Source: a virus. Taken from it: a DNA stretch of 64,000 nt. Location of the stretch: the IMG/VR virus record IMGVR_UViG_3300020469_000010. One strand, given 5' to 3'. The notes under the pieces were generated by a model. It was given only the letters and a program-made list of their open reading frames with translations, did no database searches and was not told the origin of the DNA. The first letter of the stretch is position 1; the number at the start of each line of letters is the position of its first letter. The position numbers and the translations under genes are program-made. Below, in pieces: positions 9,372-29,135 of the stretch.

Positions 9372-9384
9372 GGAGTTGTAAAAT

Positions 9385-12300: not shown

Positions 12301-13902
12301 GTTTGGAATATGCGAAGATTATTCCACTTCAATTCAAAAAATACAAGAATATTTAATGATCTTGCTTTCCTTGATATTAAAAGTGGTGGTCAAGATTTAA
12401 TTAAAAGATTTGGTGAGGCAACACCTGCATATCAAGAGTTTCCATGTGTTAATAACACACAAACAGATTATACTTGGACTGCGCCTTCTGGGATATCAGA
12501 AGTTATATTCCAAGCAATTGGTGGTGGAGGTGCTGGAAGTACAGGTAAAGTAAAATATACAAAAACAAGAGGTAAAGGGCGGCAAGATAATGTTAGACAA
12601 ACCAAGTTAATACCAGGAAGTGGAGGTGGAGGTGGAGGAGCAGCTCAACTAGAAACCACAACAGTTGCATCAGGAACAGAATTTTTCATTACTGTTGGTG
12701 CTGGGGGAAATGTAGATTCTTTTCCCACTGGTGGAAAAACAGAAATAAATCCTGGAAAAATTTCTGGAACTTCTGCAATTTTCATTAGTGTTATTGATGA
12801 AGCTTCATCCTTTAAAAAACAACAGACTGTAGATAACGCTTATGCTAATTTTCAGGCAGAATTTCCAGGGCAACCATTTTATATACTACAGCCAGGAAGA
12901 ACAGCAAATCAGATTACACTTCCATCTTCATGGAATAATGACAAATTATCATATGGTCCAATTCAAGTTGGAAGGCAGGATGGGAGAGGCATCGATGTGG
13001 TTACTGATTGGTTTGACTTACTTGATCTAAAGAAATTTGGTAGAGGAACTTTAATTTCTTTAAGTATTGATGATTCTGGAAGTATGAAAAGATCATCTGT
13101 TGAAGATTCAATTACACTTTTCTTTGAAAAAACTGCTGCAGCAGAATTTACAATTGTAGAAAGAAGTATGGCAACATCAGAAAATTGGATTGCAGGACAT
13201 ACAGGTAAAACACCAATAGATATCCCATTAGAACCATTTATTACTGCCTTCGGTGGAAAGGCAGGTTCGACAAGAGGTGGACAGGGTGGTATTTTTAGTG
13301 GATCACCTTCAGATGGATTAACTGGTGGAAACGGAGGTTCTGGTGTACAAGGAAGTTCAAACAAAACTGGACATGGAGGTGGATCGGGAATTCCTATAGG
13401 TGGTAAATGTGACGATGGATCCGATTGTGGAAATACAGGATTTGGAGGAGGTTCCGGTAAAGGTAGCACTATTTCTGGAGGAGAATGTAAGGGAGATAAT
13501 TGTATGAGTAGAACCAATAATGGAGGTGATGCTAATGGAGGTGGTTTCGGTGCTGGAGGTGGTGGAGGTCAATCTAAAAAATTAAGAAATGGTACTGTTG
13601 ATCTTGGTAGAGGAGGAAATGGTGGAAATGGTCATGCAAAAATTTTATGGAAATTTGATTTCCCAGACTATACCAAAGCTCAAGTTGTAGATACTATCAG
13701 AAGAACTCACTGGGACGACATCGGTAGAGCACCGACATTTGAAGAACTTAAAGTATACTATAATCTGTTTAAAGATAGACCAGATCTAACTGGACAGAGT
13801 TTAGGTGAGTTTGAAATTTATATGAAAGGTAAAATTGCTGATATTAAAAATACAAGATCAGAAGATAATTGTGGAAATGTTTTTCCTCTCATAGATTTCT
13901 AA
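9385..13902 (+). CDS. tail-fibre/adhesin-like protein: Ig-like repeats, glycine-rich domain, vWA-like insert
   Basis: Repeated (P)D.F.F..Thr-rich modules; GGGG tracts; DDSGSM motif. Confidence 0.7.
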   Translation: MPLIGAQGPGSQIAFRGNLDEYPDQFQFPSVVEVNPGTSGISTEVVITGINYKALVTLVGSAASVSVTPYQEATDNYGSEGDFLPGNDPNNPIIIRNKDKLKLKIDTLPPTVKEDYGRIYAANIKIGKRPESVWSITTKLVDNDPDPFSFNSQSGLEVSDFVASNNVPITGIDEIVGIDVFMLSQTGEIRINGGSPVRSGKIFNGQGIDIVDTTSGFYTKDVVNTVQVGTFATTFTHSTRDADKTIDPFTLSTVVNSDVSVSQDSTTITISGADPSINNNNPLPISITSGGQYKVTRGGTIVTQFTDVAGTVENGDVITVRQTSSTEFSTEVSTTLTVSNQSSTFRITTRPRPIDTIPDQFAFNNIIDQKRNVVVSSNEVVLAGMTAFGDEGTASISGTNGTNAEFKVIRNDEIVRDYSSSSSQVQLGDKIQLRVTTSPNSLGDVSATFTVAGTNTFTVLSGVNGSTTSTWSVISALRTCSIDIFSLTNQVGDSGGLQPGELAETSFVSTGFDEDCGITATTSNPNSYLKIGNRQGTSLDNVAIGDIIEVYMSTPYFDQTRTTTVTLTSSFGTSRSADWSIGPVSPPLPELDLNAVDRNVAFVFPNGGTAILNYVYNFVTNATVTTNFGVISVPINTLSSGSKSGSATRINLPAGTTNFTMTVSNSTGSTSDNVDVIVGVPPNPTISLCPSDTSTCSNTSNNNKGGSIRLFWKTTNCVRTESPDFSTGGKQNGNILIENLIEDDKVFTITAIGAGNPAPTATATHTANLRPFVDISTDRDSIILGESVTLSWTSEFATEVANSSGFSTRDLSGTLNVTPTTRGNFTFGITVRDTDGVQTSDSTNINVIEDISPFSFRLDPDSFDNLNRGQRVETQPVFTEGDPNSLGGLSPGVSLVATLTGQGNPKFTKNNSTTLNVENGTPTNDLKFFFNASDDFNVEHIVSLAIGDKSDSVSASTDKCIVENSTETLDGMVWNMRRLFHFNSKNTRIFNDLAFLDIKSGGQDLIKRFGEATPAYQEFPCVNNTQTDYTWTAPSGISEVIFQAIGGGGAGSTGKVKYTKTRGKGRQDNVRQTKLIPGSGGGGGGAAQLETTTVASGTEFFITVGAGGNVDSFPTGGKTEINPGKISGTSAIFISVIDEASSFKKQQTVDNAYANFQAEFPGQPFYILQPGRTANQITLPSSWNNDKLSYGPIQVGRQDGRGIDVVTDWFDLLDLKKFGRGTLISLSIDDSGSMKRSSVEDSITLFFEKTAAAEFTIVERSMATSENWIAGHTGKTPIDIPLEPFITAFGGKAGSTRGGQGGIFSGSPSDGLTGGNGGSGVQGSSNKTGHGGGSGIPIGGKCDDGSDCGNTGFGGGSGKGSTISGGECKGDNCMSRTNNGGDANGGGFGAGGGGGQSKKLRNGTVDLGRGGNGGNGHAKILWKFDFPDYTKAQVVDTIRRTHWDDIGRAPTFEELKVYYNLFKDRPDLTGQSLGEFEIYMKGKIADIKNTRSEDNCGNVFPLIDF

Positions 13903-13923
13903 TAGATGCCAATATGTTTCTAA

Positions 13924-13931
13924 TATAAATA
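13924..13931 (+). promoter_or_regulatory. T4-type late promoter
   Basis: TATAAATA in the intergenic gap upstream of a fibre gene. Confidence 0.75.
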
Positions 13932-13971
13932 TTAGAAAATATCGAGGGGATAGTGAACCTCAGGAGATCTA

Positions 13972-16272
13972 ATGGGAATTAATAAGAATTTCGTTGTTCG
14001 TAATGGATTAGAAGTTGCAACTGATCTGATTTATGCAAATGATTTTCAAAATAAAGTAGGAATCAATACTGCTTTTCCTGAATATGGTCTAGATGTTCAA
14101 GATGATATAAAAATTGAAGGGAGAATCGTATCTTCTGGAGAAACTGGTGGTGTAGTTGGACAATATTTAAAATCTACAGGTCAAGGATGGGAATGGGAAT
14201 CTTTTCCTATCAGCAGAAATACAGTTAGATATACTTTAACAGCTGGACAATTAAGAGTTCCTGAAACTGGAACTTTTCCAGACTTTACATTAACAGAACA
14301 AGATTTAACAAGTGTTTACTTAGATGGTGTTAAATTAACTGTTGGAGATTATTCCATCGATGTTGGTGGTGGTTCAATTGCATTATTTGCTGCTGCATTT
14401 GGTCAAGAAGAAATTGAAGTTATTGCTCATGGTGCTGCTGGTATTGGTGCAGGAACAACTGGTATTTTAGGTGTTACTGCAAGAAAAGCAGGTATTGATA
14501 GTGGATCAACAGGACAGGTAAGAATTTTTGATTTCGTTGGTCTTGGTGTAACACTAGATGGACGAGCAGGTATTTGTACAGTACATATAGATTCTGGTGG
14601 TCTAAGTGATGTTTTAAGTGATCCATCACCACAACTTGGTGGAAATTTAGATTTAAATTCCAGTGATATTACAGGAACTGGTGATGTAAATATTACTGGT
14701 TTTGTTACTGCAACAGGTTTCTATGGTAGTGGTTCTAATATCACTGGCATCTCTACACTCAACATTACAGGATATGGTGTTGGATTAGGTCAAGATGATT
14801 CTGGTCAGGATGGATTATTTGGTGAAGTAAATGATGATTCTGCTGTTGGTATTTTCACCGACAGTGCTGCTGTTGGTCTAGGCACAACAAATCCACGATT
14901 CCAAACAGAAATTGGATATGTTGGTGCTGCTGGAACACAACTATGGGTCAATGGTAACGCAAGAGTTACTGGTATTCTAACTGTTGGTGATTCAAGTATT
15001 ATAATTGATGGTGTCAATGATCAGATCAGAATCGGTGCTGGTTTTACACTATCTGCAGATACTGTTGCTCAAACTGCAAACTTACAATTATCTGGTATTA
15101 TTACTGCAACCGGATTTGATGGTGATCTAACTGGTCAACATAAAGTCTTTACCGCAGGTGTATCTAACAGTGATGATTATGATATTGCATTATTCCTTGA
15201 TCCTACTCAAGGTGGTCATTCATTTAACAGATTTGATTTAGGTCATAAGTTACAATTTAATCCCAATAATGGTCAATTCTCGGTTGCTGGAGTTACTAGC
15301 ACCAGAGGATTACAAGTAACAGGTGTCTCAACATTTACCAGTGGTGTAACTCTACAAGGTAATGCTCAGTTTGGAGATAGTATCTCAGCAGTCTTTGGTT
15401 CTGGAAATGATCTACATATTTATTCTGATGGATCAAATAGTTACATTGAAGATCAAGGTAATGGTGGAATAAACATTGATGCAAATCCATCTATCACGCT
15501 TGGACAGTATGGAACTACCGCAGAAATGGCATCCTTTAGAGTAGGTGCTGGTGTAAGTCTCTTCTATAATAACTCTAAGAAGTTTGAAACTACTGCTATA
15601 GGCATTGATGTAACTGGTAAAGTAACAGCAGATGACCATATACAATCAGTTACTGGTAATCAGACAGCAACTATAACAGGTAGTGATGATATCAAAAATG
15701 ATCCAGAATTAATTTTATATACAAATAATACATCTGAATTCAGAGGTTCAAGAGTTGAACTTCTAAATTCATCCAATGGAACTCAGTTATCACACTTAAA
15801 TAATAGTATAGCAAGTGGTAGTGGACAATATTTTGCCATAGAAAAAACCACTAATGATGGCACTTTCGTGCAACAGATGGCAATCTACTCTTATCGCAAT
15901 GATGAGTGGGTATTTAAGACAGGTTCTAATGAAGTTGAAAGCCTTACTATTAATAATGGACAGGTTGGTATTGGAACAACAGTTATTACTGATACTCTAA
16001 CAGTTGATGGTAATGTAAGGTCTACTAATGTTACAGTTAGTGCGGATATAACAATCGGAGGTAAAGTTCAATCAGATGTTATTGTTGGTAGCGGATATTC
16101 AGTAGGTATTGGAAGTACACAACCACAGAAAGCATTAGATGTTAGTGGTGAAATTTTAGTAACCGGTGGTATTAGTACTAATGGAACTAGTACAGCAGTT
16201 TCTTTAAATGTTGTTGGAAATGATTTAGTTATTACTGTAGGATCTTTATCAACATCGTTTTCTTTAGGATAA
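13972..16272 (+). CDS. tail fibre protein
   Basis: KNFVVRNGLEV N-terminus; VGIGT repeats; DPSPQLGGNLDLN; FGSGNDLHIY..NSYI; LFYNNSKKFETT. Confidence 0.8.
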   Translation: MGINKNFVVRNGLEVATDLIYANDFQNKVGINTAFPEYGLDVQDDIKIEGRIVSSGETGGVVGQYLKSTGQGWEWESFPISRNTVRYTLTAGQLRVPETGTFPDFTLTEQDLTSVYLDGVKLTVGDYSIDVGGGSIALFAAAFGQEEIEVIAHGAAGIGAGTTGILGVTARKAGIDSGSTGQVRIFDFVGLGVTLDGRAGICTVHIDSGGLSDVLSDPSPQLGGNLDLNSSDITGTGDVNITGFVTATGFYGSGSNITGISTLNITGYGVGLGQDDSGQDGLFGEVNDDSAVGIFTDSAAVGLGTTNPRFQTEIGYVGAAGTQLWVNGNARVTGILTVGDSSIIIDGVNDQIRIGAGFTLSADTVAQTANLQLSGIITATGFDGDLTGQHKVFTAGVSNSDDYDIALFLDPTQGGHSFNRFDLGHKLQFNPNNGQFSVAGVTSTRGLQVTGVSTFTSGVTLQGNAQFGDSISAVFGSGNDLHIYSDGSNSYIEDQGNGGINIDANPSITLGQYGTTAEMASFRVGAGVSLFYNNSKKFETTAIGIDVTGKVTADDHIQSVTGNQTATITGSDDIKNDPELILYTNNTSEFRGSRVELLNSSNGTQLSHLNNSIASGSGQYFAIEKTTNDGTFVQQMAIYSYRNDEWVFKTGSNEVESLTINNGQVGIGTTVITDTLTVDGNVRSTNVTVSADITIGGKVQSDVIVGSGYSVGIGSTQPQKALDVSGEILVTGGISTNGTSTAVSLNVVGNDLVITVGSLSTSFSLG

Positions 16273-16329
16273 ATAGGAGATCGCCAGTCACTAAATACTC
16301 TTAAGAGACCCACCTAGCTAGAGAAATAG

Positions 16330-19300
16330 ATGACTAGAAATAGTAGAGAACTATCTCAATTTGCGTCTTTTATTGATGTTAGAGATGCCAACCAAAATAT
16401 CGGGATTATTACATCAATAGTCATCGAACCTGGTGGCATTGGAATTGGAAGCACAGTTGCAGATTATCGTGCAGAAGTTGCAGCAAGAGGTGCTGTAGAT
16501 CCTCTAATCAACTTCAATGAAAGTTACTTATTAGATAAAGTTTATATTGAAGCAGATATAAATGTTGACGGTGGTCAGACAGCAGCAATAACATCTGCTG
16601 GATCAACATTTAATCACCTTAATGTAGCAGGATTAACAACGACACAGAATTTAACAGTTACAGGTATCTCTACACTTGGTGGTGATACTGGAATTGGAAC
16701 GTTATATGTTGGATCATTAAATACTGAAATCGGTGATAGCGCTGCATTAGGTAAGTCAGATACTCCATATCCAGGAACAAACTATAATTATCTTGGTGTT
16801 GGTGGTGGTAACTTTTCACCAGATAATGAATTTGCCCGTGCTGCTGTCATCATCAGTCAAGATGAAGGTGGTGATTTAAATAGAGACGATTATATTGCAT
16901 TACAAGTTTTTGGAAGAACACAATTTAATGGACGATCTCCAGATGATAATGCTGGTTTAGGAACTGCATTTGTAGTTGTTCCGGAATCATTTTTCCATAA
17001 TAAAATTACTTCTGCTCAAGGCATTGATATAACTAACCTTGACAATGGTTCAGGAAATAAATCCGATGGAAATCTTAAAGTATTCAATAGTGCACGTGAA
17101 AGAAATTTCTATAGAGATGACACATTTAGCGAAAAAGATCCAGCGGTTTACACCAGTGGTGGTATTTTAGTTGATAAATTTGGTGAAGTTGGACTTGGTT
17201 TCTCTGTTGGTGAAAGACTACAAGTTGGTTTTGGATTAACAAGAGATACCAATATTGTAAGTGGTTTTGACCCACTCGTCATGAGTGATGTTGTTCATGA
17301 TATAAGAGGAGACATATCTATTGGTGGTGATGAAATAATACTTGGTTTTACATCAACTAACCATCTTTATGATGGTGTCAATGATGCTCAAGTTAGATTT
17401 GTAAATTCCAGAGTTGCATCTAATATTTTACCACTGTTAGATAATAATAATTCTATAGGTGATGCTGCCGGTAGTCCATGGCCAAAGATCTTCGCAGCTG
17501 ATCTTGTTGATGTTGGTATATCAAATAGCATAACTGCTGGTGGTAGTGCTGCTAGAGGTCTAATACTGGCAAAAGATTTAATAATATCTGGAGTAACAAC
17601 AAGTTCAAGAGCATTTATTCCAGGTATAGGTTTAACTGGTGCAGATGCTACTGAAGCTCTCGATTTTGAAGTTCAGGTTGGTGCAACTAAGGTAAGAAAT
17701 TTCTCAGCAAATGGACATAATAAATTAGTTGGTTTCACCACAATTTTTGGAGAATTAAATGTTATAACAAGCAGTGGTGCTCCATTTAATGGATATGCAG
17801 CAACTGCTTTCCATGCAAATCAGATAGATGTTACTAGGCAGGACGCAAATAATAGTGCTAATCCTGAATATTTCTTCCCAGCAATGGTGAATTCCAGTCA
17901 AACTCAGACTGCTGCTGGTGCATTGTTATTTGTAAATCCTGGTTTTTATCTAGATGCTTTTGGATCAAGTCTCTACATTCAAAATGACTTAAATGTTCTT
18001 GGAACTGCTATCAATGCAGATCCATTTAGTGGAGAAACTGAAATAAGATTTGATGTACTAAATTATCGAGTAGATCAGTTACAACTTGCTGGTGAAGCAA
18101 GTCAAATCACCATGGGGCAGGCAGGTGCCACTGGTGTTACGACTATTTTTACTCGTAGAACAGATATATCAGAACTTAGACTTTTCCAAAATAATATTGA
18201 ATCAAGTGTTGGAAGTACATGTATCACATTAGATAATCTTGATACCATATTCACTGGTAGCGTTACTATTGGTGGAACGCAAATTGCTGCTACTAGTAAT
18301 CAATTTGAGATTGCATCTGATCCGAATTCTGGTAAATTATTTACTGGTGCGGCTGATATTCTAATTGGTCCTGATGGACAGACAACATCTGGAGTTACAA
18401 CTATAAGATCTACTATTACTGAAGTTGAAAAACTACAACTCAATGCAAATCAAATTAGATCAAGTGATGCTGAACCTGTTATTGAGGTTGGTGTAGGTGC
18501 AACTTTTGTTCAAACTAGTGGTGATTTAATAATAACCGGTATACACATAAACACTGGTTTTGGTGAAACTCAAATAACATTAGATAAACAGGTTGGTAGG
18601 ATTGAATTTTATAATGACATCATGGTTAATAGTAATAAAATACTATCCAGTGATGGAAATATAAACATTCAAATGTTTGATAACCAGGAACTTACAAGTT
18701 TCACTGGTGCAATTAGAGTTGAAGGTGATACTATTCAAGCAGGAAGTGGTAATACAAACATCACAATGCAGAGCAACCAGCTAACAAGATTTGCTGGTGC
18801 AATACAAGTTGATGGTAATCAAATTCGTTCTAGTGATGGACAAACAAATATTGAAATTAATAGTGATTTCTTAACAGAATTTAAAGGTGATATTCGTGTT
18901 GGTGGTGCTGGATCAATTCAAGCAGGTGATGGAGTTAATTGTATAACTCTTGAAGTTGGAACAGGTAATGTTGCAATTTCAAGTGATTTAACTGCTAACA
19001 GTGCGTTCTTTAATGGATTAGAAGCAAGATTAAATGTTCAAGATGTTGACATCAGAGATAACCTCTTGAGAATTGGTATGATTGAAGATCCTACAACAGA
19101 AGGATCACTAATTCCACCAAATGTATCGACAGGAAATACTGGTGATGTTGGTATCTTGATGGCAAGATATGATGTTGGTCTTTCAACTCATAAATATGCC
19201 GGTATTTTCTTTGATGATTCTAATGGAAGAATTGCAATTCGCACTGATGTAGAGGATGATCAGACTGGTACTGGAAGAAATCGTATACTCCAACTAAATG

Positions 19301-19443
19301 GATTACCCTCAGAATTAGAAATTAAAAACTTACTTTTAACTCTAAATAATACAATCGGAGTTAAAACATTGTTTGAACCTAGTGCAACTGACGATACTGT
19401 TCTTGTTCTGGGTAATGTGGAAATAGATGGGGGCACTTATTGA
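16330..19443 (+). CDS. tail fibre-like structural protein with ~30-aa beta repeats
   Basis: QIRSSDGQTNI..F.G.I.V.G repeats; ends IDGGTY; late-promoter-like motifs at 16268 and 16290. Confidence 0.75.
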   Translation: MTRNSRELSQFASFIDVRDANQNIGIITSIVIEPGGIGIGSTVADYRAEVAARGAVDPLINFNESYLLDKVYIEADINVDGGQTAAITSAGSTFNHLNVAGLTTTQNLTVTGISTLGGDTGIGTLYVGSLNTEIGDSAALGKSDTPYPGTNYNYLGVGGGNFSPDNEFARAAVIISQDEGGDLNRDDYIALQVFGRTQFNGRSPDDNAGLGTAFVVVPESFFHNKITSAQGIDITNLDNGSGNKSDGNLKVFNSARERNFYRDDTFSEKDPAVYTSGGILVDKFGEVGLGFSVGERLQVGFGLTRDTNIVSGFDPLVMSDVVHDIRGDISIGGDEIILGFTSTNHLYDGVNDAQVRFVNSRVASNILPLLDNNNSIGDAAGSPWPKIFAADLVDVGISNSITAGGSAARGLILAKDLIISGVTTSSRAFIPGIGLTGADATEALDFEVQVGATKVRNFSANGHNKLVGFTTIFGELNVITSSGAPFNGYAATAFHANQIDVTRQDANNSANPEYFFPAMVNSSQTQTAAGALLFVNPGFYLDAFGSSLYIQNDLNVLGTAINADPFSGETEIRFDVLNYRVDQLQLAGEASQITMGQAGATGVTTIFTRRTDISELRLFQNNIESSVGSTCITLDNLDTIFTGSVTIGGTQIAATSNQFEIASDPNSGKLFTGAADILIGPDGQTTSGVTTIRSTITEVEKLQLNANQIRSSDAEPVIEVGVGATFVQTSGDLIITGIHINTGFGETQITLDKQVGRIEFYNDIMVNSNKILSSDGNINIQMFDNQELTSFTGAIRVEGDTIQAGSGNTNITMQSNQLTRFAGAIQVDGNQIRSSDGQTNIEINSDFLTEFKGDIRVGGAGSIQAGDGVNCITLEVGTGNVAISSDLTANSAFFNGLEARLNVQDVDIRDNLLRIGMIEDPTTEGSLIPPNVSTGNTGDVGILMARYDVGLSTHKYAGIFFDDSNGRIAIRTDVEDDQTGTGRNRILQLNGLPSELEIKNLLLTLNNTIGVKTLFEPSATDDTVLVLGNVEIDGGTY

Positions 19444-21408: not shown

Positions 21409-22083
21409 ATGAGTGTTGATTATTCAATTTATTTTGGTGAAAATGAGGATAGCAATCCTGGTAATGAAGATTATATAATTCCTATATTTTCAGTTCCTTT
21501 ATTTCACTATAAAGTAGAAAATTGGCCAGAGAAAAAAGAAAAATTGATGGAATTATATAATAAAAGATTAGAAAGTAACATGTTAAAAAGAACTGGAGGT
21601 ATGAATGATGTAGAAACTGATTATCATGCTAATTTTGATAATGAATATAATTATTCGGATGATATCACTGACATCTTTGAAAGTGAATTAGTAGATTTTG
21701 CTGATGCTTCAGACTTGGCAATTTCTGTAAACTCTACATGGTTTGAAAGATCATCTAAAAATAGTTTACATTCATGTCATAATCATGGACCAATAGGATA
21801 TAGTGCAGTTTGCTTCATTCAATTTGATCCTAAATATCATACACCAACGGTGTTTATGAATCCAGTAACTGCTGCTGTTTCACCATGTAGTTTGATGCCA
21901 CCAGGAATAAGAGAAGGATCTTTAATTTTATTTCCATCATATCTTTTACATTTTACAAATTCTAATGAAAGTGATGTGGATAGAATTATATTATCATTTA
22001 ACTTAGAATCTGAAGAGGAAAGTCAAAAATTTTCTGATGATGATGATGCACATGACGGTGAATACTACTCAAAATCCTGCTAA
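21409..22083 (+). CDS. 2OG-Fe(II) oxygenase-like (TIGR02466 type)
   Basis: HSCHNHG, LILFPSYLLH, RIILSFN. Confidence 0.8.
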   Translation: MSVDYSIYFGENEDSNPGNEDYIIPIFSVPLFHYKVENWPEKKEKLMELYNKRLESNMLKRTGGMNDVETDYHANFDNEYNYSDDITDIFESELVDFADASDLAISVNSTWFERSSKNSLHSCHNHGPIGYSAVCFIQFDPKYHTPTVFMNPVTAAVSPCSLMPPGIREGSLILFPSYLLHFTNSNESDVDRIILSFNLESEEESQKFSDDDDAHDGEYYSKSC

Positions 22084-22639
22084 AGTTTTTATTCTTCGTA
22101 ATTTTTTATTTGAAGATGATGTAAAAGAACTTAATCAGTGGACACTTAGGAACAACCATTTGCATTATTTTAAAGATGCTTGTATGGATCCTGATAATCA
22201 TGGGACGAGATTTACAACTCGACGTTGTAATGAAGAAATAGCAGGAGACATAGACTATCCAAAGTCTGCATATGTTATACAAAAAAGAATAATCAATTAT
22301 TTTCACCTAGAAGGATATAAAAGTCCACCATCATATAGTCATGGAATTGTAACTGGAATTGGATACGATGGTGGAAGAATAGAGAATCACATTGATCCTA
22401 CATACTATCCAGATACAAAAACAGTTCACTTCAATGCTATCACACAACAAGCAGAAGAGGGTGGACATACCATCATTGATGGTGTAGAATATAAAAATGT
22501 AAATCCTACGGATCTTTTAATCTATCAAGTATCTGAACTTCATCATGAAGTAACATCAACTAAAGGAAATACTCCTAGAATACTTTGGGTTTTTGGTTTT
22601 TGCCTTGACAACGAAAAAATAGAGGAAATTTTTTTATGA
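22052..22639 (+). CDS. 2OG-Fe(II) oxygenase
   Basis: HID, GG, HEVT, RILWVFG; start codon uncertain (22037-22052). Confidence 0.8.
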   Translation: MTVNTTQNPAKVFILRNFLFEDDVKELNQWTLRNNHLHYFKDACMDPDNHGTRFTTRRCNEEIAGDIDYPKSAYVIQKRIINYFHLEGYKSPPSYSHGIVTGIGYDGGRIENHIDPTYYPDTKTVHFNAITQQAEEGGHTIIDGVEYKNVNPTDLLIYQVSELHHEVTSTKGNTPRILWVFGFCLDNEKIEEIFL

Positions 22640-23361
22640 CAGTAGAATTGTTTGAACTTAATGACCTATCTAATATGAAAGTCATTAAATTTAATGATGG
22701 AGATAGTGTATCAAATATTTACTGGATGGATAATTTTTACAAAGATCCAGATGGTGTATTTGATTATATTCAATCTGAAGAACCACCCCTATGGAAATAT
22801 GGAGATGAGTGGAAAGAATTCATGGAGACTTCATTGAACACCAAAACTTTTGAAGACAGACGACATATGAGAAAAACACCATATTTAAAAAAGGTGTATA
22901 AAGCATTGTCAAAGTTTACTGGTCAGGATGCAATGGATTATGATCTTGTCACAAACTACACTAGATTTAGTAGAGTAAAAGAAAATCCATATAAAACACA
23001 TTATTGGTGGCCTCATCATGACGCAGGATATAATGGTATTTGCTATCTGACAAAAAATGAAGAAATTGGAACCAATTTATACAAACCATTAATTACCGAT
23101 AATCCAGAAATTTTACCTCTAGATGAAAATGATTCTTATAGAAATGAACATGGAATACCATGGACACCTAAAAAATTGTGGGATATTGTAGTCAGATTAC
23201 GTTCAAAATATAATAGATTTGTTATGTTTGAAGGATCTATGTACTATCATAGCATGGACTTGACTGGTAAATATTATTTTGCTGATCATTATAGTAATGC
23301 TGATTATCGTATCAATCAAGTATTCTTTTTTAGAAATGAATCATCTCCATATTCAGACTGA
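22636..23361 (+). CDS. 2OG-Fe(II) oxygenase-like
   Basis: PHHD, YNRFVMFEG..YYHS, RINQVFF. Confidence 0.75.
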   Translation: MTVELFELNDLSNMKVIKFNDGDSVSNIYWMDNFYKDPDGVFDYIQSEEPPLWKYGDEWKEFMETSLNTKTFEDRRHMRKTPYLKKVYKALSKFTGQDAMDYDLVTNYTRFSRVKENPYKTHYWWPHHDAGYNGICYLTKNEEIGTNLYKPLITDNPEILPLDENDSYRNEHGIPWTPKKLWDIVVRLRSKYNRFVMFEGSMYYHSMDLTGKYYFADHYSNADYRINQVFFFRNESSPYSD

Positions 23362-23367
23362 AGTATA

Positions 23368-24063
23368 ATGCACAAACATAAGATAAATCGCACTTACTAT
23401 GAGGACACTCATGAAGATAATAATCAAGAAAATGATTCAAATCATATAGAGATTCATGATGTACAATCTGAACAAATTTTTTCAACTCCAATTTGGAGTA
23501 TGGAAATTGATACTGATAATGATGCAATACTTGAAGAATGTTATGATTTAGAACGCAAATTTCCTAATGGAGTTCGTAAATCTAATGCAGGAGGGTGGCA
23601 AAGTGATGTATTTGAAATTGAAACTATAAGTCCCTTTATGACTCCTAAAATTCAAATTTTAGCAAGAAATGTAGAAGATATTACTTATGATTTGGTAGAA
23701 GAATTTGCCGGAGGAAAGAAAAATCTTTCTGCTAATGTTGGTAAAGATCAAATAGGATGGTGGATTAACATTAACAGAGGATATTCATATAATGTTTATC
23801 ACACCCATCCGGGATGTGCATTGATTGCATTATATTATGCAAAAATCCCAAATAATAAAGACGAAAGAGAAGGTAATTTAGTTCTCTTAAGACAAGATTC
23901 AATGAATCATAATAATGTATTTGCTAACATAGGAGAACTATGTGAGGCTAATATCATACCACAAGAAAAACATTTGTATATAATGCCTTCAGTTGTAGCA
24001 CATTATGTCACTGCACATACTTGCAATGAAGATAGAATTTCTATTGCATTTAATATTGGATAA
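23368..24063 (+). CDS. 2OG-Fe(II) oxygenase-like (TIGR02466 type)
   Basis: SNAGGWQS, WININ, HTHPG, PSVVAHYV, RISIAFN. Confidence 0.85.
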   Translation: MHKHKINRTYYEDTHEDNNQENDSNHIEIHDVQSEQIFSTPIWSMEIDTDNDAILEECYDLERKFPNGVRKSNAGGWQSDVFEIETISPFMTPKIQILARNVEDITYDLVEEFAGGKKNLSANVGKDQIGWWININRGYSYNVYHTHPGCALIALYYAKIPNNKDEREGNLVLLRQDSMNHNNVFANIGELCEANIIPQEKHLYIMPSVVAHYVTAHTCNEDRISIAFNIG

Positions 24064-24066
24064 ATA
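24059..24066 (+). promoter_or_regulatory. late promoter (NATAAATA)
   Basis: GATAAATA about 35 nt before the fibre gene ATG. Confidence 0.55.
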
Positions 24067-24099
24067 GAATGATACTGAAATTTTTTGGTAGGTAAATAT

Positions 24100-24627
24100 A
24101 TGTCAATTCTACAGGCCAGTGGCATACAATTTGGAGATAATACAGTTTTAAATTCCAAGTATGGAATTATTCCTCAGGGAAGCAGTATGGTATTCTATAA
24201 ATCTTCTGCTCCAAGTGGATGGACAAAATCTACAGCACATAATAATAAAGCATTAAGAGTTGTATCTGGATCTGGTGGTGGATTTGGTTCTGGTGGAACT
24301 TCTGGACCGGGAGGATCTTCCTTCACTTCTATCATGGCAAGTAGAAGTGTTTCTGGATCAGTAACTTCGGGTGGTGCTGTTGGTAATCATACATTAACAT
24401 TGCAGCAAATTCCATCACATAGTCATAATGCAGGTTCTAGTGTAACTGTTAGTCCAGGTAGTCCTGGTACACAAGGTCGTGCTGTTAATAGTCAAGCACC
24501 TAATACAGGTAGTGCTGGAGGAGGTTCATCTCATAATCACCCATTTAGTGGTGGTACTTCTCCTGTTTCTGGTAGTGTTGATTTGAGAGTTCAATATATT
24601 GATGTTATTGTTTGTAGTTTTAACTGA
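24100..24627 (+). CDS. short tail-fibre/collar-domain protein with HxH motifs
   Basis: APSGWTK..NNKALRVVSG, HTLTLQQIPSHSH, GGGSSHNHPF, VQYIDVIVC; ATG at 24100. Confidence 0.85.
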   Translation: MSILQASGIQFGDNTVLNSKYGIIPQGSSMVFYKSSAPSGWTKSTAHNNKALRVVSGSGGGFGSGGTSGPGGSSFTSIMASRSVSGSVTSGGAVGNHTLTLQQIPSHSHNAGSSVTVSPGSPGTQGRAVNSQAPNTGSAGGGSSHNHPFSGGTSPVSGSVDLRVQYIDVIVCSFN

Positions 24628-24636
24628 GGACAATAA

Positions 24637-25923
24637 ATGGCAATTTTACAAACCGATGGCCTACAGTTTGGAAATGGTGGTGTAATTGAGACAAAATATT
24701 TTTTAGTCCCACAAACAACTCAGATGTTGTTTTATCAAGCATCTGCACCAACTGGATGGACTAAAAAAACAACACACAATAATAAAGCATTAAGAGTTGT
24801 ATCTGGAACTGGTGCAGGTAGTGGTGGTACTAGTAGTTTTACAAGTATATTCAAGTCCAGTAATACTGTATCAATGTCAGGATCTCATAGTGGATCTGTT
24901 GGCAATACAACATTATCTTTACAACAACTTCCATCACATAGTCATGGTGTTGGAAGTCCATTCAGCGCAGTCAGTTCTGCCGGTACTTCTCCATTCAGAC
25001 AACCACGAAGACAACCTAGATCATACTCTTTCAGGGCTGAATATAGACAACCAAGAAACTTTCGAGCTTCAGTTGCTTTCAGACGACCAATTCAGTTTAG
25101 ACAACCAAGAAATAGTCAAGTTGCAATTAGGCAAAGAAGAGACGTCAGATTTAGAAATGAACTTGAAATAAGATCAAGAAATCCGTTTAGATATAGAAGT
25201 CCATACAGACAACCAAGATCTTATAATACAACTGTATCAGTAAGATACAGGCAACCATTTAATAATAGAGTTGATTCTGGTAGAAATAGAAGTCCATCTA
25301 GACAAAGACGTTCTGTCAATTTTACAGTCAATCAAAGAAGGGAAGATAGGGGAAGAAGACGAGATCTAAAACGCAGAAGAAATCAGAGAAGAAGAACTGA
25401 TGTTCGTTTTAGATTGTCAGCTCGAGTAAGAGTTAATCAACGAAGAAGAAGCAACTTCAGACAAAGAAGACAGACTACTACTAACCAACCGGCAAGACAG
25501 AGAAGAGATGCTCGGCAGCCGAGAAGTTATAGTAATCAGGCTGATGTGAGACAAAGAAGATCTGACAGACAAAGAAGAGATGTCCCACAGCGTGCTAGGT
25601 ATCAAGGAAGGTTAAGAGTTGAAATTAGACAACCACGCAGATATCAAGCCTTTGTAGAATTTAGACAAAGTGCTGCTTATAGGCAACCAAGAACTTTCAG
25701 ACTAGCAAGAAGATACCCAGCAACAAATAATAATAGAGCAAATCAAAGAATATTGACACCCGGTGGAACTATTAGAGGAGTTAATACTCAAGGACCTGCA
25801 ACTTCGTCGGCTGGTGGAGGTTCATCTCATAATCATCCGTTTAATGGACAATCTTTCTCAACATCTTTAGGTCTTGATATAAGATTACAGTATATTGATG
25901 TTATTATGTGCTCTTTTAACTAG
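24637..25923 (+). CDS. paralogous short fibre with a ~250-aa arginine-rich insertion
   Basis: Both ends align with 24100..24627; the insertion at 24997..25749 lies between the SHSH and HNH motifs. Confidence 0.85.
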   Translation: MAILQTDGLQFGNGGVIETKYFLVPQTTQMLFYQASAPTGWTKKTTHNNKALRVVSGTGAGSGGTSSFTSIFKSSNTVSMSGSHSGSVGNTTLSLQQLPSHSHGVGSPFSAVSSAGTSPFRQPRRQPRSYSFRAEYRQPRNFRASVAFRRPIQFRQPRNSQVAIRQRRDVRFRNELEIRSRNPFRYRSPYRQPRSYNTTVSVRYRQPFNNRVDSGRNRSPSRQRRSVNFTVNQRREDRGRRRDLKRRRNQRRRTDVRFRLSARVRVNQRRRSNFRQRRQTTTNQPARQRRDARQPRSYSNQADVRQRRSDRQRRDVPQRARYQGRLRVEIRQPRRYQAFVEFRQSAAYRQPRTFRLARRYPATNNNRANQRILTPGGTIRGVNTQGPATSSAGGGSSHNHPFNGQSFSTSLGLDIRLQYIDVIMCSFN

Positions 25924-25973
25924 ACAAATTGTACATATTCTGATAGACTAAATAAGACAAAGAATTTTTTAGT

Positions 25974-26357
25974 ATGAGTGATGCGTTTGGAAAATGGTGT
26001 CCCTTAATAAGAAAAAACTGTATTGAACATAAGTGTGCTTGGTATATGCGTATTGCTGGACTAGATCCTAATACTGGTCAAGAAATTGATCATTGGGGAT
26101 GTGCAATAAGTTGGATGCCAACTTTACTTATTGAAAACTCACAACAACAGAGGCAAACTGGTGCTGCTGTTGAGTCTTTCCGTAATGAAATGGTCAATGC
26201 AAATGAAAGTAATCAACAAATGTTAGATGCTGTTGGTAACATGTATCTTGATATGTGCGAGCAACAGGGTGTCAATGTTGATCAATATATAGAACCTTTA
26301 GAAGGCATAGATAATAACGAAGAAAACATTTTACCACCTGAAGAGGAAAGACCATGA
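25974..26357 (+). CDS. Cys-rich fibre-associated protein
   Basis: CPLIRKNCIEHKCAW...WGCAISW..LLIENSQQQRQTGAAVESFRNEMV. Confidence 0.75.
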   Translation: MSDAFGKWCPLIRKNCIEHKCAWYMRIAGLDPNTGQEIDHWGCAISWMPTLLIENSQQQRQTGAAVESFRNEMVNANESNQQMLDAVGNMYLDMCEQQGVNVDQYIEPLEGIDNNEENILPPEEERP

Positions 26358-27691
26358 AAATTTCTATTATTCCACAAGATAATCGTATTGTAGTTGATGG
26401 AAAAACTGTAGATCTTGATGATAATGATATTAGGTGGGAATTTGAAGATGAGCATATTCATGCTATTCAGTGGAAAGATAGCATGGGTGAAGTTGAATAT
26501 GAAGATGAAATTGGTAAAGATCCTCTTCCCAATAAATCCTTTGGTCAGGATGAATTTGATACCATTGTTCAACCATACTTGTCTTTCTTTGAAAAATTTC
26601 TAACTGTTACAGAGCAAAATGAACTTGAGGCTATATTAGAAGAAGAAGAGAGATTAGCAAATGATATAAAAGAATCAGATCTTAATAAGATGCAAGAAGA
26701 AGAAAATATTTTAATGATAGAAGATCTTCAGTTACAAAATAAAGAAGTTAGACAAAATTATATGCAAATTGCTGCCGAATTAGGTGATGTTCTTGAAGAG
26801 AAAAAAGTAACTGAACAACAACTTAAACTAGAATATGATAAAGAATTGTTTGAAAAAGATCAATTGCTTAAGCAACAAGAACATGCAAAGATAGAGGAGT
26901 TTTTTAAAAAAAAATCGGCCGATTTTCTTGCAAACTTAGAAAAACTTGAAGAAGATTTTAATTCCCAGAAAGAAAATCTTGCCGAAGAAAAAAAACAATT
27001 TAACGACTATATACAAAAATATAGAGATACTTTAGAAAAAGAAAGTGAAGAAATCAATGAACAATTATTAGAAGGCAAAAGAAATGCAGAAAAAGATAAA
27101 ATTTTAAAAGAAAAGTCACAAGCTAATGCTGAAGAGTCAATGTCTATAATGAGGGCAGCAAATGAATTAGAACAGCAAAGTATGGAATTGGCATTTGAAG
27201 AATTGGAGTTAGAAAAAACTCGTTTACGGAATGAAAGAAGATTGGAAATTGAACGAATCAAACTTCTTGAAGATGAACTAGAAAAAGAAAAGGAAAATAT
27301 TGAACTGTCATACATCCAAGAAAGAGAAGAAATACTTAAGTATGATATGAAAGATGATGCAGAACTTACATTCTATCAGTGGCAATTAAAAGATACTGCT
27401 GAACTTGAAGCTGATTATATTAAAAAACAACAAGATAAATTCGACGATTACATTGCTGAGCGGGAAGGAACCTATAGAGATATTGAAGAACGCGTTCGTC
27501 TTAAAGAAATTGAAGGGAAATCTGAACTTAAAGAAGTTGAAGATGTTTCATCCATCCTTGATGAAATTAATCCAGAGGAATTTTATCAATCTCTTACAGA
27601 TGATCAAAGAGATTCAAATAGTTTTCCGGTAGAAAAAGCAACTGCTTGGTTTAAAAAACTAAAAGAGGTAATGGAAAAGAATGAATCTTGA
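26354..27691 (+). CDS. fibre-assembly-chaperone-like N-terminal domain fused to a long acidic coiled coil
   Basis: MKISIIPQD..IVVDG..IHAIQW..GEVEY, then ~350 aa of E/K/L/Q-rich helix. Confidence 0.7.
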   Translation: MKISIIPQDNRIVVDGKTVDLDDNDIRWEFEDEHIHAIQWKDSMGEVEYEDEIGKDPLPNKSFGQDEFDTIVQPYLSFFEKFLTVTEQNELEAILEEEERLANDIKESDLNKMQEEENILMIEDLQLQNKEVRQNYMQIAAELGDVLEEKKVTEQQLKLEYDKELFEKDQLLKQQEHAKIEEFFKKKSADFLANLEKLEEDFNSQKENLAEEKKQFNDYIQKYRDTLEKESEEINEQLLEGKRNAEKDKILKEKSQANAEESMSIMRAANELEQQSMELAFEELELEKTRLRNERRLEIERIKLLEDELEKEKENIELSYIQEREEILKYDMKDDAELTFYQWQLKDTAELEADYIKKQQDKFDDYIAEREGTYRDIEERVRLKEIEGKSELKEVEDVSSILDEINPEEFYQSLTDDQRDSNSFPVEKATAWFKKLKEVMEKNES

Positions 27692-29135
27692 TTTGTTGAG
27701 GAACAACTATTTGGTTGTTCCAAATTTTATTACCAAAAAAGAAGCATTAAAATTAAAGACGGAATTTGAATTAACAGATGAAGTTTTTGAATTTTCCGGT
27801 GATGAACAGGCACCTAATTCATCATCAATATATAATTATCTTCCTGCGTTAGAACTTTTAGCAAATAAAACATCACATGTATCTGAAATTATAGGTGAAA
27901 CTGTTTTACCAACTTATGTTTACTCCAGAATTTATCATAATGGGAGTGAATTAGTAAAACATACAGATCGTCCAGCATGTGAAATATCTTTAACTCTACA
28001 TCTTGGTGGAGATAAACCTTGGGCAATTTGGATAAAAACACCTAATAATAAAAATAAGTGTGTAAATTTGAATCCAGGTGATGCTATGCTATACTTGGGT
28101 TGCATTGCTCCACATTGGAGAGATACTTTTGAGGGAGATAATTATACACAGTTTTTCTTACATTATGTTAGGAGTCGTGGATGTTGTAATAGTGTTTATT
28201 TTGATAAACATGATAATGACAGTGATTTACCATCAAACCATAAATTGAATCATTTTTTAGAAAAGGAGTATGAACAAATGGGAAGACTTATTATACCAAG
28301 AAAATGGGAAGAATGTGATGAATTACTAAATGAATTTAATGAAAATAATCTTGAAATAGTTGATTCTGATTCGGAGTCGCAATATATTGATTTTGATGAT
28401 TCAAAATCAAAAATTTTTAGTAAACAAAAAGAACCTAAAATTGAACCCAAGTCAGAAGAATATTTTGATTTTGATGAAGTAGTAATTATCAACAAAAAAT
28501 ATGAGAAGAATTTTGTTGAAACAACTTCTAAAAAAGAGGTAAAAGATGTAAAAGATGCAAAACTTTCAAATAAAAGTTTGCATGAGTTTATACTGCATGT
28601 TGAAAATTGGATTGAACCAGATTTTTGTGATGAATTACTAAATGAATATGCAGATACTAATTTTTGGGAACCAACATTAACTGGTAGTGGATATGATCCA
28701 GGTTCTAGGAAATGTAATGTTATCAATATTTCTGACGAACATATTAAAAATGAAGCAAATACTGAGACTAGAAATGAACTTGACGAGTATCTATTTGAAA
28801 AAGTTTCAAAGTTAATTAACAAATATCAATCTGAGAATGATGATTTCTTGTTAGAAATGCAGGAAGATAGTGGATATGAACTGTTAAAGTATGAAGTTGG
28901 TGATTTTTTCCTTGAACATAGTGATTCTTTCAAAGAAAATCCTAGAGCTTTAACTATAATTTTTGCATTGAATGATAATTATAAAGGTGGTGAAATCGGA
29001 TTTTTCAAAAGAGAGTTAATTTATAGGTTAAATGTTGGAGATGCTATAATTTTTCCAGCTAATTTCATGTATCCACATGAAATTCTTCCAGTTACCGAAG
29101 GAATTAGATTCTCGGTAATTACATGGATTGTTTGA
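27681..29135 (+). CDS. two-domain 2OG-Fe(II) oxygenase (prolyl-4-hydroxylase-like C-terminal domain)
   Basis: HTDRPACEIS..PHWR and EHSD..FPANFMYPHEILPV..RFSVITW. Confidence 0.85.
   Translation: MNLDLLRNNYLVVPNFITKKEALKLKTEFELTDEVFEFSGDEQAPNSSSIYNYLPALELLANKTSHVSEIIGETVLPTYVYSRIYHNGSELVKHTDRPACEISLTLHLGGDKPWAIWIKTPNNKNKCVNLNPGDAMLYLGCIAPHWRDTFEGDNYTQFFLHYVRSRGCCNSVYFDKHDNDSDLPSNHKLNHFLEKEYEQMGRLIIPRKWEECDELLNEFNENNLEIVDSDSESQYIDFDDSKSKIFSKQKEPKIEPKSEEYFDFDEVVIINKKYEKNFVETTSKKEVKDVKDAKLSNKSLHEFILHVENWIEPDFCDELLNEYADTNFWEPTLTGSGYDPGSRKCNVINISDEHIKNEANTETRNELDEYLFEKVSKLINKYQSENDDFLLEMQEDSGYELLKYEVGDFFLEHSDSFKENPRALTIIFALNDNYKGGEIGFFKRELIYRLNVGDAIIFPANFMYPHEILPVTEGIRFSVITWIV

Follow-up and report, generated by a model that had tools for sequence, protein, structure and literature searches.

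Organization of the locus

The window analysed here is a 64,000-nucleotide stretch of viral DNA (IMG/VR record IMGVR_UViG_3300020469_000010). It contains two adjacent genes, henceforth referred to as the short and long paralogues, whose products are predicted to share an HxH fibre-tip domain. The long paralogue carries an Arg-rich insert between its two HxH motifs, and the pair lies among genes for 2OG-Fe(II) oxygenases and acidic proteins. The features are as follows.

21409..24063, plus strand: four 2OG-Fe(II) oxygenase genes, directly upstream of the pair
24060..24066, plus strand: late-promoter-like motif of the T4 type (ATAAATA), located 34 nt ahead of the short-paralogue ATG
24100..24627, plus strand: short paralogue, putative HxH fibre-tip domain, 175 aa (profile matches; S-SCSM1 orthologue gp244)
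24637..25923, plus strand: long paralogue, putative HxH tip domain with the Arg-rich insert, 428 aa plus stop
24637..24951, plus strand: N-terminal tip-domain part, residues 1-105, ending with the first HxH
24997..25371, plus strand: predicted outgoing hairpin arm, residues 121-245, a hexad-periodic amphipathic beta-strand (AlphaFold2, covariation, face composition)
25372..25380, plus strand: predicted hairpin apex, R246-R248, inside RGRRRDLKRRRNQRRR (centre of the covariation register)
25381..25749, plus strand: predicted return hairpin arm, residues 249-371 (AlphaFold2 strand, covariation, amphipathy)
25750..25920, plus strand: C-terminal tip-domain part, residues 372-428, with the second HxH and the QYIDVI..C tail
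25974..26357, plus strand: 127-aa acidic Cys-containing protein, found after the fibre paralogues at all related loci, both insert-bearing and insert-free
26354..27691, plus strand: 445-aa protein, net charge -58, with a tail-fibre-assembly-like N-terminal part of ~100 aa and then a Glu-rich extension of ~350 aa
27681..29135, plus strand: two-domain 2OG-Fe(II) oxygenase with a prolyl-4-hydroxylase-like C-domain (PF13640 at E 6.8e-13)

Outside the loop between the HxH motifs, the two paralogues align as an earlier reading of the sequence (the first-pass annotation) had described, identity being 64% over the part that precedes the first HxH and 61% over the part that begins with the second. The stretch between the motifs measures 35 aa in the short paralogue versus 294 aa in the long one. 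The first HxH of the long paralogue (H101 and H103, 24937..24945) is invariant across 38 sequences, and residues 1-105 share a mean identity of 52% with family members; the second HxH is formed by H398 and H400 (25828..25836). ATAAATA occurs 16 times in the window versus 32 expected, with 14 of the 16 copies on the plus strand and several just upstream of large structural open reading frames (13925, 16269). By its sequence and position, the copy at 24060..24066 is suggestive of a late promoter for the paralogue pair.

The base domain resembles HxH fibre tips

Profile comparisons support the assignment of the protein that hosts the insert to the HxH fibre-tip domains. The base profile of the long paralogue matched PDB entry 9qgo_A at E 2.5e-7, and the short-paralogue profile, built from 35 relatives, matched 9qgo_A at E 1.4e-8 and 9nxk_A at E 2.3e-6. 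Across 38 long and 35 short paralogues, neither the two HxH motifs nor the Q-Y-[IV]-D tail show any variation. The first-pass annotation had proposed this identity and had placed the insert at the tip of the inter-HxH loop; the matches to Pvc13 (9QGO) and Pa223 (9NXK) extend over both HxH motifs, and the placement was likewise supported.

Aligned by hhalign with single sequences of T4 gp12, gp10 and gp37, the base-domain profile reached a probability of at most 1.2%, and Pfam Gp10_C scored 18.7 bits against a cut-off of 27. The published description of phage S-SCSM1 assigned the orthologue gp245 to gp12 by HHpred (99.2% for gp245 and 98.9-99.5% for the orthologues) and does not mention the insert. 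The AlphaFold2 monomer model of the short paralogue had a pLDDT of 66, and a Foldseek search with it returned nothing at E <= 0.001. The top rows from VIA-align were T4 gp11, gp10C, the A-1(L) fibre, the PVC fibre and the gp12 RBD, at Z scores of only 2.2-3.2. A Pfam search gave no match at E <= 0.1, including to the phage tail fibre repeat PF03335; a feature search of the insert in the Atlas gave only a language-model lead to PF03335 (0.77-0.79), which lies under the level often reached by shuffled proteins.

Composition, conservation and origin of the insert

The in-frame translation of 24997..25749 comprises 251 aa, with 79 Arg (31.5%), one Lys, 15 Asp plus Glu and no His, and the Arg-rich chain has a net charge of +66. 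RQPR occurs eight times (protein residues 121-349), near the flanks, and six RQRR and three NQRR lie further inside. This recount reproduced the length, composition and motif placement reported in the first-pass annotation, and the midpoint string that it had quoted was found in the translation. All six Arg codons are present, as had been stated, though their usage is uneven (AGA 59, AGG 8, CGA 6, CGT 3, CGC 2, CGG 1). Because Arg outnumbers Lys by 79:1 in a genome of 31% GC, the preference points to guanidinium chemistry rather than to charge alone; in the acidic protein next to it, 48 Lys are present against 18 Arg.

The insert is real, conserved coding sequence. S-SCSM1 gp245 has the same architecture, and so do more than 50 representatives of metagenomic clusters; their identity to the window protein is 33-56%. 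Between 35 and 44% of the conserved Arg residues are encoded by a different codon in relatives, and a search within the insert found no DNA-level tandem repeat. These results agree with the earlier proposal that the repeat is maintained at the protein level, and DNA slippage was rejected as the origin of the insert.

A search for homologues with other insert lengths, suggested in the first-pass annotation, gave inter-HxH loops of 275-367 aa in the insert-bearing clade versus 28-64 aa in 65 wider relatives. Of 55 representatives, 17 share a stretch of exactly 284 aa. The insert-bearing loci form one clade, demonstrating a single evolutionary origin of the insert. A phmmer search with the insert alone against 1.84 billion representatives matched only four proteins, all of the same fibre family, and tblastn found no second copy of the insert in the window. 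As judged by these searches, the module appears to be without detectable homologues outside its own family.

Two loci, L034 and L028, had appeared as exceptions to the single clade and are not genuine; one of them is a cut contig.

The insert is predicted to form a long beta-hairpin

The 251-residue insert almost certainly folds back as one very long, two-armed antiparallel beta-hairpin. An AlphaFold2 model built with 38 sequences placed strands at residues 137-199 and 295-357 (pLDDT 68-84). In an MI-APC analysis of 77 sequences, the signal was highest along the anti-diagonals i+j = 492, 494 and 496, where it reached 0.08-0.10 (background -0.008 +/- 0.018), and antiparallel covariation was present in each 10-residue block from 115 to 244. 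This register spans the whole insert and agrees with the AlphaFold2 hairpin. The arms are gap-free in the 77 sequences (residues 121-215 in the outgoing arm). Hydrophobic residues recur with a period of 2, and Arg and Pro with a period of 6. At even positions, hydrophobic residues make up 40% and Gln 18%, and Pro is absent (0%); at odd positions, Arg accounts for 40% and Pro for 16%, with hydrophobic residues at ~0%. Because of the covariation, the gap-free amphipathic arms and the hexad period of Arg, the insert is read as a folded out-and-back beta-ribbon, the structure that had been anticipated in the first-pass annotation.

The share of Arg on the odd face varies from 11% to 46% over the family, and the hydrophobic face is retained. 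Around the apex (residues 231-262), Arg occupies both faces; this region is the least conserved (26% mean identity) and the sole one with indels. Such patterns suggest that the odd face is exposed and tunable, with the central part the most variable.

Neighbouring genes

Homologues of the 127-aa protein were found in more than 70 loci at 55-92% identity, and domain and profile searches assigned it to no family. The N-terminus of the 445-aa protein matched predicted structures in the Atlas from PF16778/DUF4376 clusters, at TM 0.74-0.76 over 88 residues; sequence searches of the protein against Pfam and PHROG gave no match, including to Phage_tail_APC and DUF4376. Its homologues measure 431-502 aa at insert-bearing loci versus 114-261 aa at insert-free loci.

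The charge of the insert correlated with that of the 445-aa protein across 28 loci (raw r = -0.90), and by independent contrasts on a 26-locus subset (r = -0.62, p = 8e-4; raw r -0.89). Other neighbours also correlated with insert charge, at -0.49 for the 127-aa protein, +0.58 for the short paralogue and -0.44 for an upstream oxygenase, and a specific charge matching between the insert and the 445-aa acidic protein was downgraded on that account. Because several neighbours correlate, the signal is module-wide or lineage-wide and is no evidence for one partner.

Proposed function

The explanation that we favour, and consider somewhat better than an even proposition, is that the product of 24637..25923 is an accessory protein of the tail-fibre tip in a T4-type cyanomyovirus resembling S-SCSM1, and that its Arg-studded hairpin rod serves adsorption. 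The base would be a trimeric HxH domain, and the 251-aa module at the apex of the inter-HxH loop would run ~125 residues out and ~125 back, reaching up to ~40 nm if fully extended. The ribbon face that bears Gln and the aromatic and aliphatic residues probably lies buried; the simplest arrangement would be three ribbons packed round a three-fold axis. The other face would present Arg at each sixth residue together with Pro and small polar residues, and the distal ~30 residues would carry Arg on both faces. The trimeric packing, the rod length, the presence in the virion and the ligand are inferred. The guanidinium groups would most likely make multivalent contacts with phosphate, sulfate or carboxylate, and the insert would probably bind polyanions of the picocyanobacterial envelope (LPS, EPS) at the host surface.

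Several observations count against this explanation. Confidence of the AlphaFold2 model was under 40 between its two strands (residues 200-294) and also in the base domain. The hydrophobic share of the putative inner face is only 40%, and Pro at each sixth residue argues against a fully hydrogen-bonded closed barrel. With +66 on every chain, close packing of a trimer would be strongly disfavoured unless counter-ions were present.

Alternative explanations

The protein may instead be no virion adhesin, acting inside the cell or in assembly, for instance by binding nucleic acid or polyphosphate or by providing a polycationic scaffold, or serving as a fibre precursor that loses its insert before assembly. 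We consider this unlikely, although it is the best placed of the alternatives. The first-pass annotation had held that absence from virions would speak against its reading, and available data touch on this in part: among the 45 proteins of the S-SCSM1 virion proteome, the short-paralogue orthologue gp244 is flagged and the structural block gp225-236 is marked in its entirety, whereas the Arg-rich gp245 is not flagged. This counts against a virion role. Trypsin would shred the insert, and the flanks should still yield a few usable peptides; because few tryptic peptides are expected from the insert, the non-detection of gp245 is weak evidence. Arg-rich segments often bind nucleic acids, and oxygenase genes surround this gene, which is not part of the main structural block. 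Against an intracellular role, the base is a predicted fibre-tip domain common to a virion-borne paralogue, the late-promoter-like motif precedes the pair, a tail-fibre-assembly-like gene is conserved downstream, and the insert differs from protamine-like binders in being an amphipathic hairpin of conserved length.

It is improbable that the insert is a disordered polycationic tether, or tentacle, for non-specific electrostatic capture. Such a tether would account for the very high net charge, the low sequence complexity and the Arg on both faces at the apex. It would also fit the low confidence of the structural models, since the AlphaFold2 model of the long paralogue had a mean pLDDT of 51 (under 40 in the centre of the insert) and the Atlas's own model had a pLDDT of 0.40. 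Disordered Arg-rich segments of the protamine or ARM type have no fixed length, register or periodicity. The insert, in contrast, shows gap-free arms, strict period-2 amphipathy in which Pro keeps to one face, and antiparallel covariation over its full length, and it lacks DNA-level repeats or slippage; many representatives have an inter-HxH length of exactly 284 aa.

By analogy, the periodic Arg/Pro face might mainly be a substrate array for the flanking P4H-like 2OG-Fe(II) oxygenases, the hydroxylated surface being the functional one. This reading is doubtful; it is compatible with the adsorption rod favoured above. The chlorovirus PBCV-1 combines a viral prolyl hydroxylase with Pro-rich repeats. 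Six oxygenase genes bracket the module, and homologues of the four upstream genes were found in insert-bearing loci only. The C-domain of the downstream enzyme matches prolyl 4-hydroxylases (E 1e-3 to the Bacillus enzymes 3itq/5hv0), and the exposed face presents Pro at each sixth residue. However, because the insert-bearing loci are one clade, the joint presence of the insert, the long acidic tail and the four oxygenases is a single evolutionary event. In addition, 24 oxygenases of this kind are dispersed through the S-SCSM1 genome, and the P4H-like gene is present at insert-bearing and insert-free loci alike.

An extension of the favoured reading would join the fibre to the acidic chaperone-like protein and the flanking oxygenases in a three-part device producing a post-translationally tailored polycationic adhesin for adsorption across Synechococcus and Prochlorococcus. 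A ~40-nm rod with an Arg/Pro face would be kept soluble during assembly by a chaperone with a ~350-aa polyanionic tail, and dedicated viral 2OG/P4H-like oxygenases would hydroxylate the RQPR face that it exposes. As a whole, this scheme is a long shot.

Finally, an artefactual open frame (assembly error, non-coding A-rich DNA or an overprinted gene), which the odd composition of the insert might suggest (AT skew up to 0.35, 75% of Arg codons AGA), is effectively refuted already by conservation, since an isolate phage and over 50 independent clusters from metagenomes retain frame and motifs, conserved Arg codons turn over synonymously, and no alternative frame is open across the insert in the window gene or six relatives (seven of seven genes), so that overprinting was rejected.

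Significance

Receptor-binding tips decide the host range of phages, and those of marine cyanomyoviruses are poorly understood. With ~125 residues per arm and Arg at 6-residue spacing, the insert would rank among the longest beta-hairpins proposed for any protein and would be a new fibre-tip construction with neither metal staples nor a globular head. If it does bind envelope polyanions at seawater salinity, this would provide a mechanism for the broad Synechococcus and Prochlorococcus range of S-SCSM1-like phages. The many orphan 2OG oxygenases of cyanophages would gain a concrete candidate substrate, and the hairpin could be a design template for rigid polycationic nanorods. Bench testing is possible because an isolate, S-SCSM1 on Synechococcus WH7803, exists.

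Comparison with known systems

No Arg-rich fibre was found in the literature searched, and there the hairpin is a structural element without description. The first-pass annotation, which recognised no described fibre of this kind, was to that extent correct, but an orthologue had already been deposited as "short tail fiber protein". This is S-SCSM1 gp245 (QFG06509.1), which is syntenic with gp244, gp246 and gp247. The module order in S-SCSM1 is the same as in the window: four oxygenases, the short paralogue, the long paralogue, a 128-aa protein, a 445-aa acidic protein and more oxygenases. The inter-HxH stretch of gp245 is 284 aa long, with 27% Arg and 10 RQPR. The protein is only 49% identical to that of the window, and the fibre-gene DNA cannot be aligned by megablast.

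In the tip needle of the T4 long tail fibre protein gp37 (PDB 2XGF), the chain runs out and back from an HxH-bearing trimeric tip, with the turn at the distal end; its antiparallel strands follow the fibre axis, and repeated HxH motifs bind metal. The comparison with gp37-type tips made in the first-pass annotation stands for the path of the chain, as the AlphaFold2 hairpin and the covariation at i+j = 492-496 indicate an antiparallel out-and-back course in the insert as well. It does not extend to the metal sites. The gp37 sequence has an HxH about every 9 residues, whereas none of the 251 insert residues is His, and the insert has an Arg/Pro period of 6, ~125 residues per arm and a charge of +66. 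A six-stranded needle of the gp37 kind, put together from three hairpins, would have to form without His or metal motifs and on this shorter period.

Pvc13, the fibre of the Photorhabdus PVC, and Pa223, a Pseudomonas phage tail fibre, are trimers with host-binding C-terminal domains. Their similarity to the base domain spans a P-x-G-W segment and both HxH motifs. Unlike the long paralogue, they have inter-HxH loops of tens of residues, and they possess long N-terminal shafts that are missing from the window proteins.

Protamine-like, ARM-like and cell-penetrating Arg peptides likewise combine extreme Arg content and avoidance of Lys with an expected affinity for polyanions. Such peptides are short or disordered, in contrast to the insert, which is predicted to be a length-conserved, covarying, amphipathic beta-hairpin set in a fibre tip.

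The paralogous tip proteins and the arginine-rich insert

Two neighbouring open reading frames each carry an HxH fibre-tip domain.

24100..24627, short paralogue, 175 aa, directly upstream of the long paralogue
24637..25923, + strand, long paralogue, 428 aa

The first-pass annotation had described the two as alignable end to end except for a replaced loop between the HxH motifs, and identities of 64% before the first HxH and 61% from the second HxH onward bear this out. The inter-HxH stretch spans 294 aa in the long paralogue versus 35 aa in the short one. The insert (24997..25749) encodes 251 aa, of which 79 are Arg, 15 are Asp or Glu and one is Lys; His is absent. RQPR occurs eight times, RQRR six times and NQRR three times, the centre reads RGRRRDLKRRRNQRRR, and all six kinds of Arg codon are present, with AGA accounting for 59 of the 79. 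The length, Arg and Lys counts, motifs, midpoint string and codons annotated earlier were exact on recount. The accompanying proposal, that the repeat is kept at the protein level and not by DNA slippage, also held: where the window and four relatives share an Arg, the Arg codon differs at 35–44% of positions, and TRF detected no DNA repeat within the insert. No alternative reading frame was open across the insert in seven genes.

The nearest isolate, Synechococcus phage S-SCSM1 (Kyanoviridae), has a gene order identical to that of the window, and its orthologue of the long paralogue is gp245 (421 aa), in which a stretch of 284 aa is 27% Arg and includes RQPR 10 times. A search of 5.8 billion proteins returned 55 full-length cluster representatives (411–515 aa, 33–56% identity), in all of which the inter-HxH composition was 14–30% Arg with 0–1 Lys; IMG/VR contigs widened the family to Arg as low as 11% and Lys up to 11. 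Judged from these comparisons, the insert is real coding sequence under selection.

Fold of the insert

The AlphaFold2 model, built from 38 sequences, was poor overall (pLDDT 51) but contained a hairpin within the insert, the long strands of which (residues 137–199 and 295–357 of the long paralogue) had pLDDT 68–84. Covariation was assessed independently of AlphaFold2 as APC-corrected mutual information over 77 unique family sequences. Peaks of 0.095, 0.085 and 0.075 were observed on the anti-diagonals i+j = 492, 494 and 496, against a background of -0.008 ± 0.018 over 333 anti-diagonals. Because the excess was present in each 10-residue block from 115–124/370–379 through 235–244/250–259, the insert in its entirety runs out and back as one antiparallel structure, turning near R246–R248. 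Hairpin and covariation together agree with the out-and-back beta path first proposed for this protein.

The arms were gap-free relative to the window's residues in 77/77 sequences, with indels confined to the centre. Arg autocorrelation was maximal at lags 6, 12, 18, 24 and 30, while Pro recurred with period 6 and hydrophobic residues with period 2. In the window's arms, hydrophobic residues fill 40% of even positions, Gln 18% and Arg 15%, and across the family no even position has Pro; at odd positions Arg reaches 40% and Pro 16%, and hydrophobic residues number one in ~95 arm positions and three over the whole insert. Across the family, Arg on the odd face varies from 11% to 46% and the hydrophobic face is retained. 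In the centre (231–262), Arg occupies 7/16 positions on each face. Mean identity falls from 52–58% in the base to 35% in the arms and 26% in the centre. On account of the gapless arms, periodicities, face separation, Arg range and conservation gradient, the insert is best read as a folded beta-ribbon of amphipathic character, whose exposed cationic face is variable and whose tip is hypervariable and fully cationic. At a standard rise of ~0.33 nm per residue, 125 residues per arm would give a ribbon of up to ~40 nm. Pro at each sixth position of one face speaks against a fully hydrogen-bonded six-stranded barrel.

Gene neighbourhood and origin

Three genes follow the paralogues.

25974..26357, acidic 127-aa protein with four Cys (C-x7-C-x4-C ... 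C)
26354..27691, acidic protein, 445 aa: ~100-aa N-terminal part, then ~350-aa Glu-rich extension, net charge -58
27681..29135, two-domain 2OG-Fe(II) oxygenase; C-domain similar to Bacillus prolyl 4-hydroxylase structures (E 1e-3)

All insert-bearing loci contain four 2OG-Fe(II) oxygenases upstream, both paralogues, the 127-aa protein, an acidic protein of 431–502 aa and the two-domain oxygenase. Insert-free loci contain the paralogues, the 127-aa protein, an acidic protein of 114–261 aa (homologous over the first ~50 residues and still acidic) and the two-domain oxygenase, which is thus kept beside the fibre module in both groups; the four upstream oxygenases were absent from the insert-free loci compared. 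Over its first 100 aa the acidic protein resembles tail-fibre assembly proteins among Atlas predicted structures (TM ~0.75), a likeness with no sequence-family match behind it. The 127-aa protein, which has no family match, adjoins the fibre paralogues downstream in all related loci at 55–92% identity and is more conserved than the fibres.

In a tree built on the 127-aa protein, insert-bearing loci all fell on one side of one branch; of the two apparent exceptions, L034 is a cut contig and L028 a scripting miss. This placement implies that the insert arose once, so its co-occurrence with these genes represents one event. It was gained by a lineage already possessing two or three tandem short paralogues. 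Exhaustive phmmer with the insert alone found no relatives outside its own family. The closest relative found (L034 42..3628 versus window 25500..29135), cut within the fibre gene, shares 66% identity at the fibre C-terminus, 92% in the 127-aa protein, 74% in the acidic protein and 84% in the oxygenase, making the fibre the fastest-evolving gene of the module.

Uncultured large myovirus contigs of up to 248 kb (L041 6995..8632; L043–L080) carry two or three tandem, shaftless short HxH tip paralogues of 171–195 aa, which suggests interchangeable or mixed tip subunits. S-SCSM1 is the only phage in the isolate collection with such paralogues.

Charge correlation

Net charges of the insert and acidic protein correlated at r = -0.90 over 28 loci (window's pair, +66 versus -58). 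In a 26-locus subset the raw r was -0.89 and independent contrasts gave r = -0.62 (p = 8e-4). Insert charge also correlated with the 127-aa protein (-0.49), short paralogue (+0.58) and one upstream oxygenase (-0.44); the signal is therefore not specific to the acidic protein, which undercuts specific charge matching between it and the insert, and may be a lineage-wide compositional trend. Across 21409..29135 and loci L001–L042, the net charge of several module proteins follows the positive charge of the insert from phage to phage (127-aa protein, -1 to -16; two-domain oxygenase, -4 to -48; likewise one upstream oxygenase and the short paralogue), a pattern resembling a compositional trend of the whole module or lineage, possibly related to habitat salinity.

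Proposed function

T4-type late promoters are expected to place ATAAATA ahead of structural genes. The motif occurs 16 times in the whole window versus 32 expected, 14 of them on the + strand, and several copies lie 40–60 nt upstream of large structural ORFs (copies include 13925, 16269, 21198 and 24060); that at 24060 is 34 nt upstream of the paralogue pair. Ahead of the module lie four very large + strand ORFs (3804..19443; 1855, 1505, 766 and 1037 aa) that match S-SCSM1 gp225–236, virion and tail-fibre proteins, in position.

A virion adhesin is favoured by the homology of the tip domain, the annotation of gp244, the S-SCSM1 orthologue of the short paralogue, as a virion protein, this strand-biased late-promoter-like motif before the pair and other structural ORFs, the fibre-assembly-like neighbour and the fast-evolving tip, as well as the S-SCSM1 host range, which crosses genera. 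Against it, the Arg-rich orthologue is not among the 45 marked virion proteins in the S-SCSM1 record; trypsin would destroy the insert, yet a few flank peptides should have shown in the proteome. The insert's Arg:Lys ratio is 79:1 in a genome of 31% GC, and the adjoining protein has 48 Lys and 18 Arg. This preference suggests that the contacts are specific to guanidinium (cation-pi, or bidentate with phosphate or sulfate) and go beyond charge alone, which would suit seawater, where long-range electrostatics are screened. Weighing these points, we lean towards an Arg-studded rod that binds envelope polyanions multivalently.

Action inside the cell or in assembly, with which absence from the marked virion proteins would accord, is unlikely. 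A disordered tether is improbable, the poor overall AlphaFold2 model standing beside antiparallel covariation along the whole insert. A further idea, compatible with the polyanion-binding rod and prompted by the prolyl-4-hydroxylase-like C-domain, takes the RQPR face as a substrate for oxygenases; it is equally improbable, since single origin reduces the co-occurrence to one event and S-SCSM1 encodes 24 oxygenases in total.

Relation to known fibres

The gp245 family has been deposited, the S-SCSM1 paper is silent on the insert, and no paper discussing it was found. New here are the covariation register, face-by-face anatomy and single origin of the insert, the missing virion-proteome flag for gp245 and the control weakening acidic-protein charge matching. 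A known fibre-tip domain here bears an insert module without detectable relatives.

The S-SCSM1 paper assigned gp245 to T4 gp12 (HHpred 99.2%) and gp244 to gp10/gp37/gp12 (98.9–99.5%). Here, the Pfam Gp10_C match was under the family cut-off, hhalign against single T4 sequences gave no significant match, and fold searches returned rows at Z 2–3 only, mostly gp10, gp11, gp12 and fibre entries. The inter-HxH loop is 28–64 aa in 65 wider relatives and 32–56 aa in insert-free phage relatives, with no lengths between 64 and 275 aa among the relatives examined. Profiles built on each of the two paralogues matched Photorhabdus PVC Pvc13 (9QGO; E 2.5e-7 and 1.4e-8), and a paralogue profile matched the Pseudomonas phage Pa223 fibre (9NXK; E 2.3e-6), the alignments spanning the P-x-G-W segment and both HxH motifs. 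Both are solved trimeric fibres, and the Pvc13 authors describe the matched region as homologous to phage short tail fibre host-binding domains. The T4 gp37 needle has a ~9-residue period, whereas the insert has a 6-residue period and no His.
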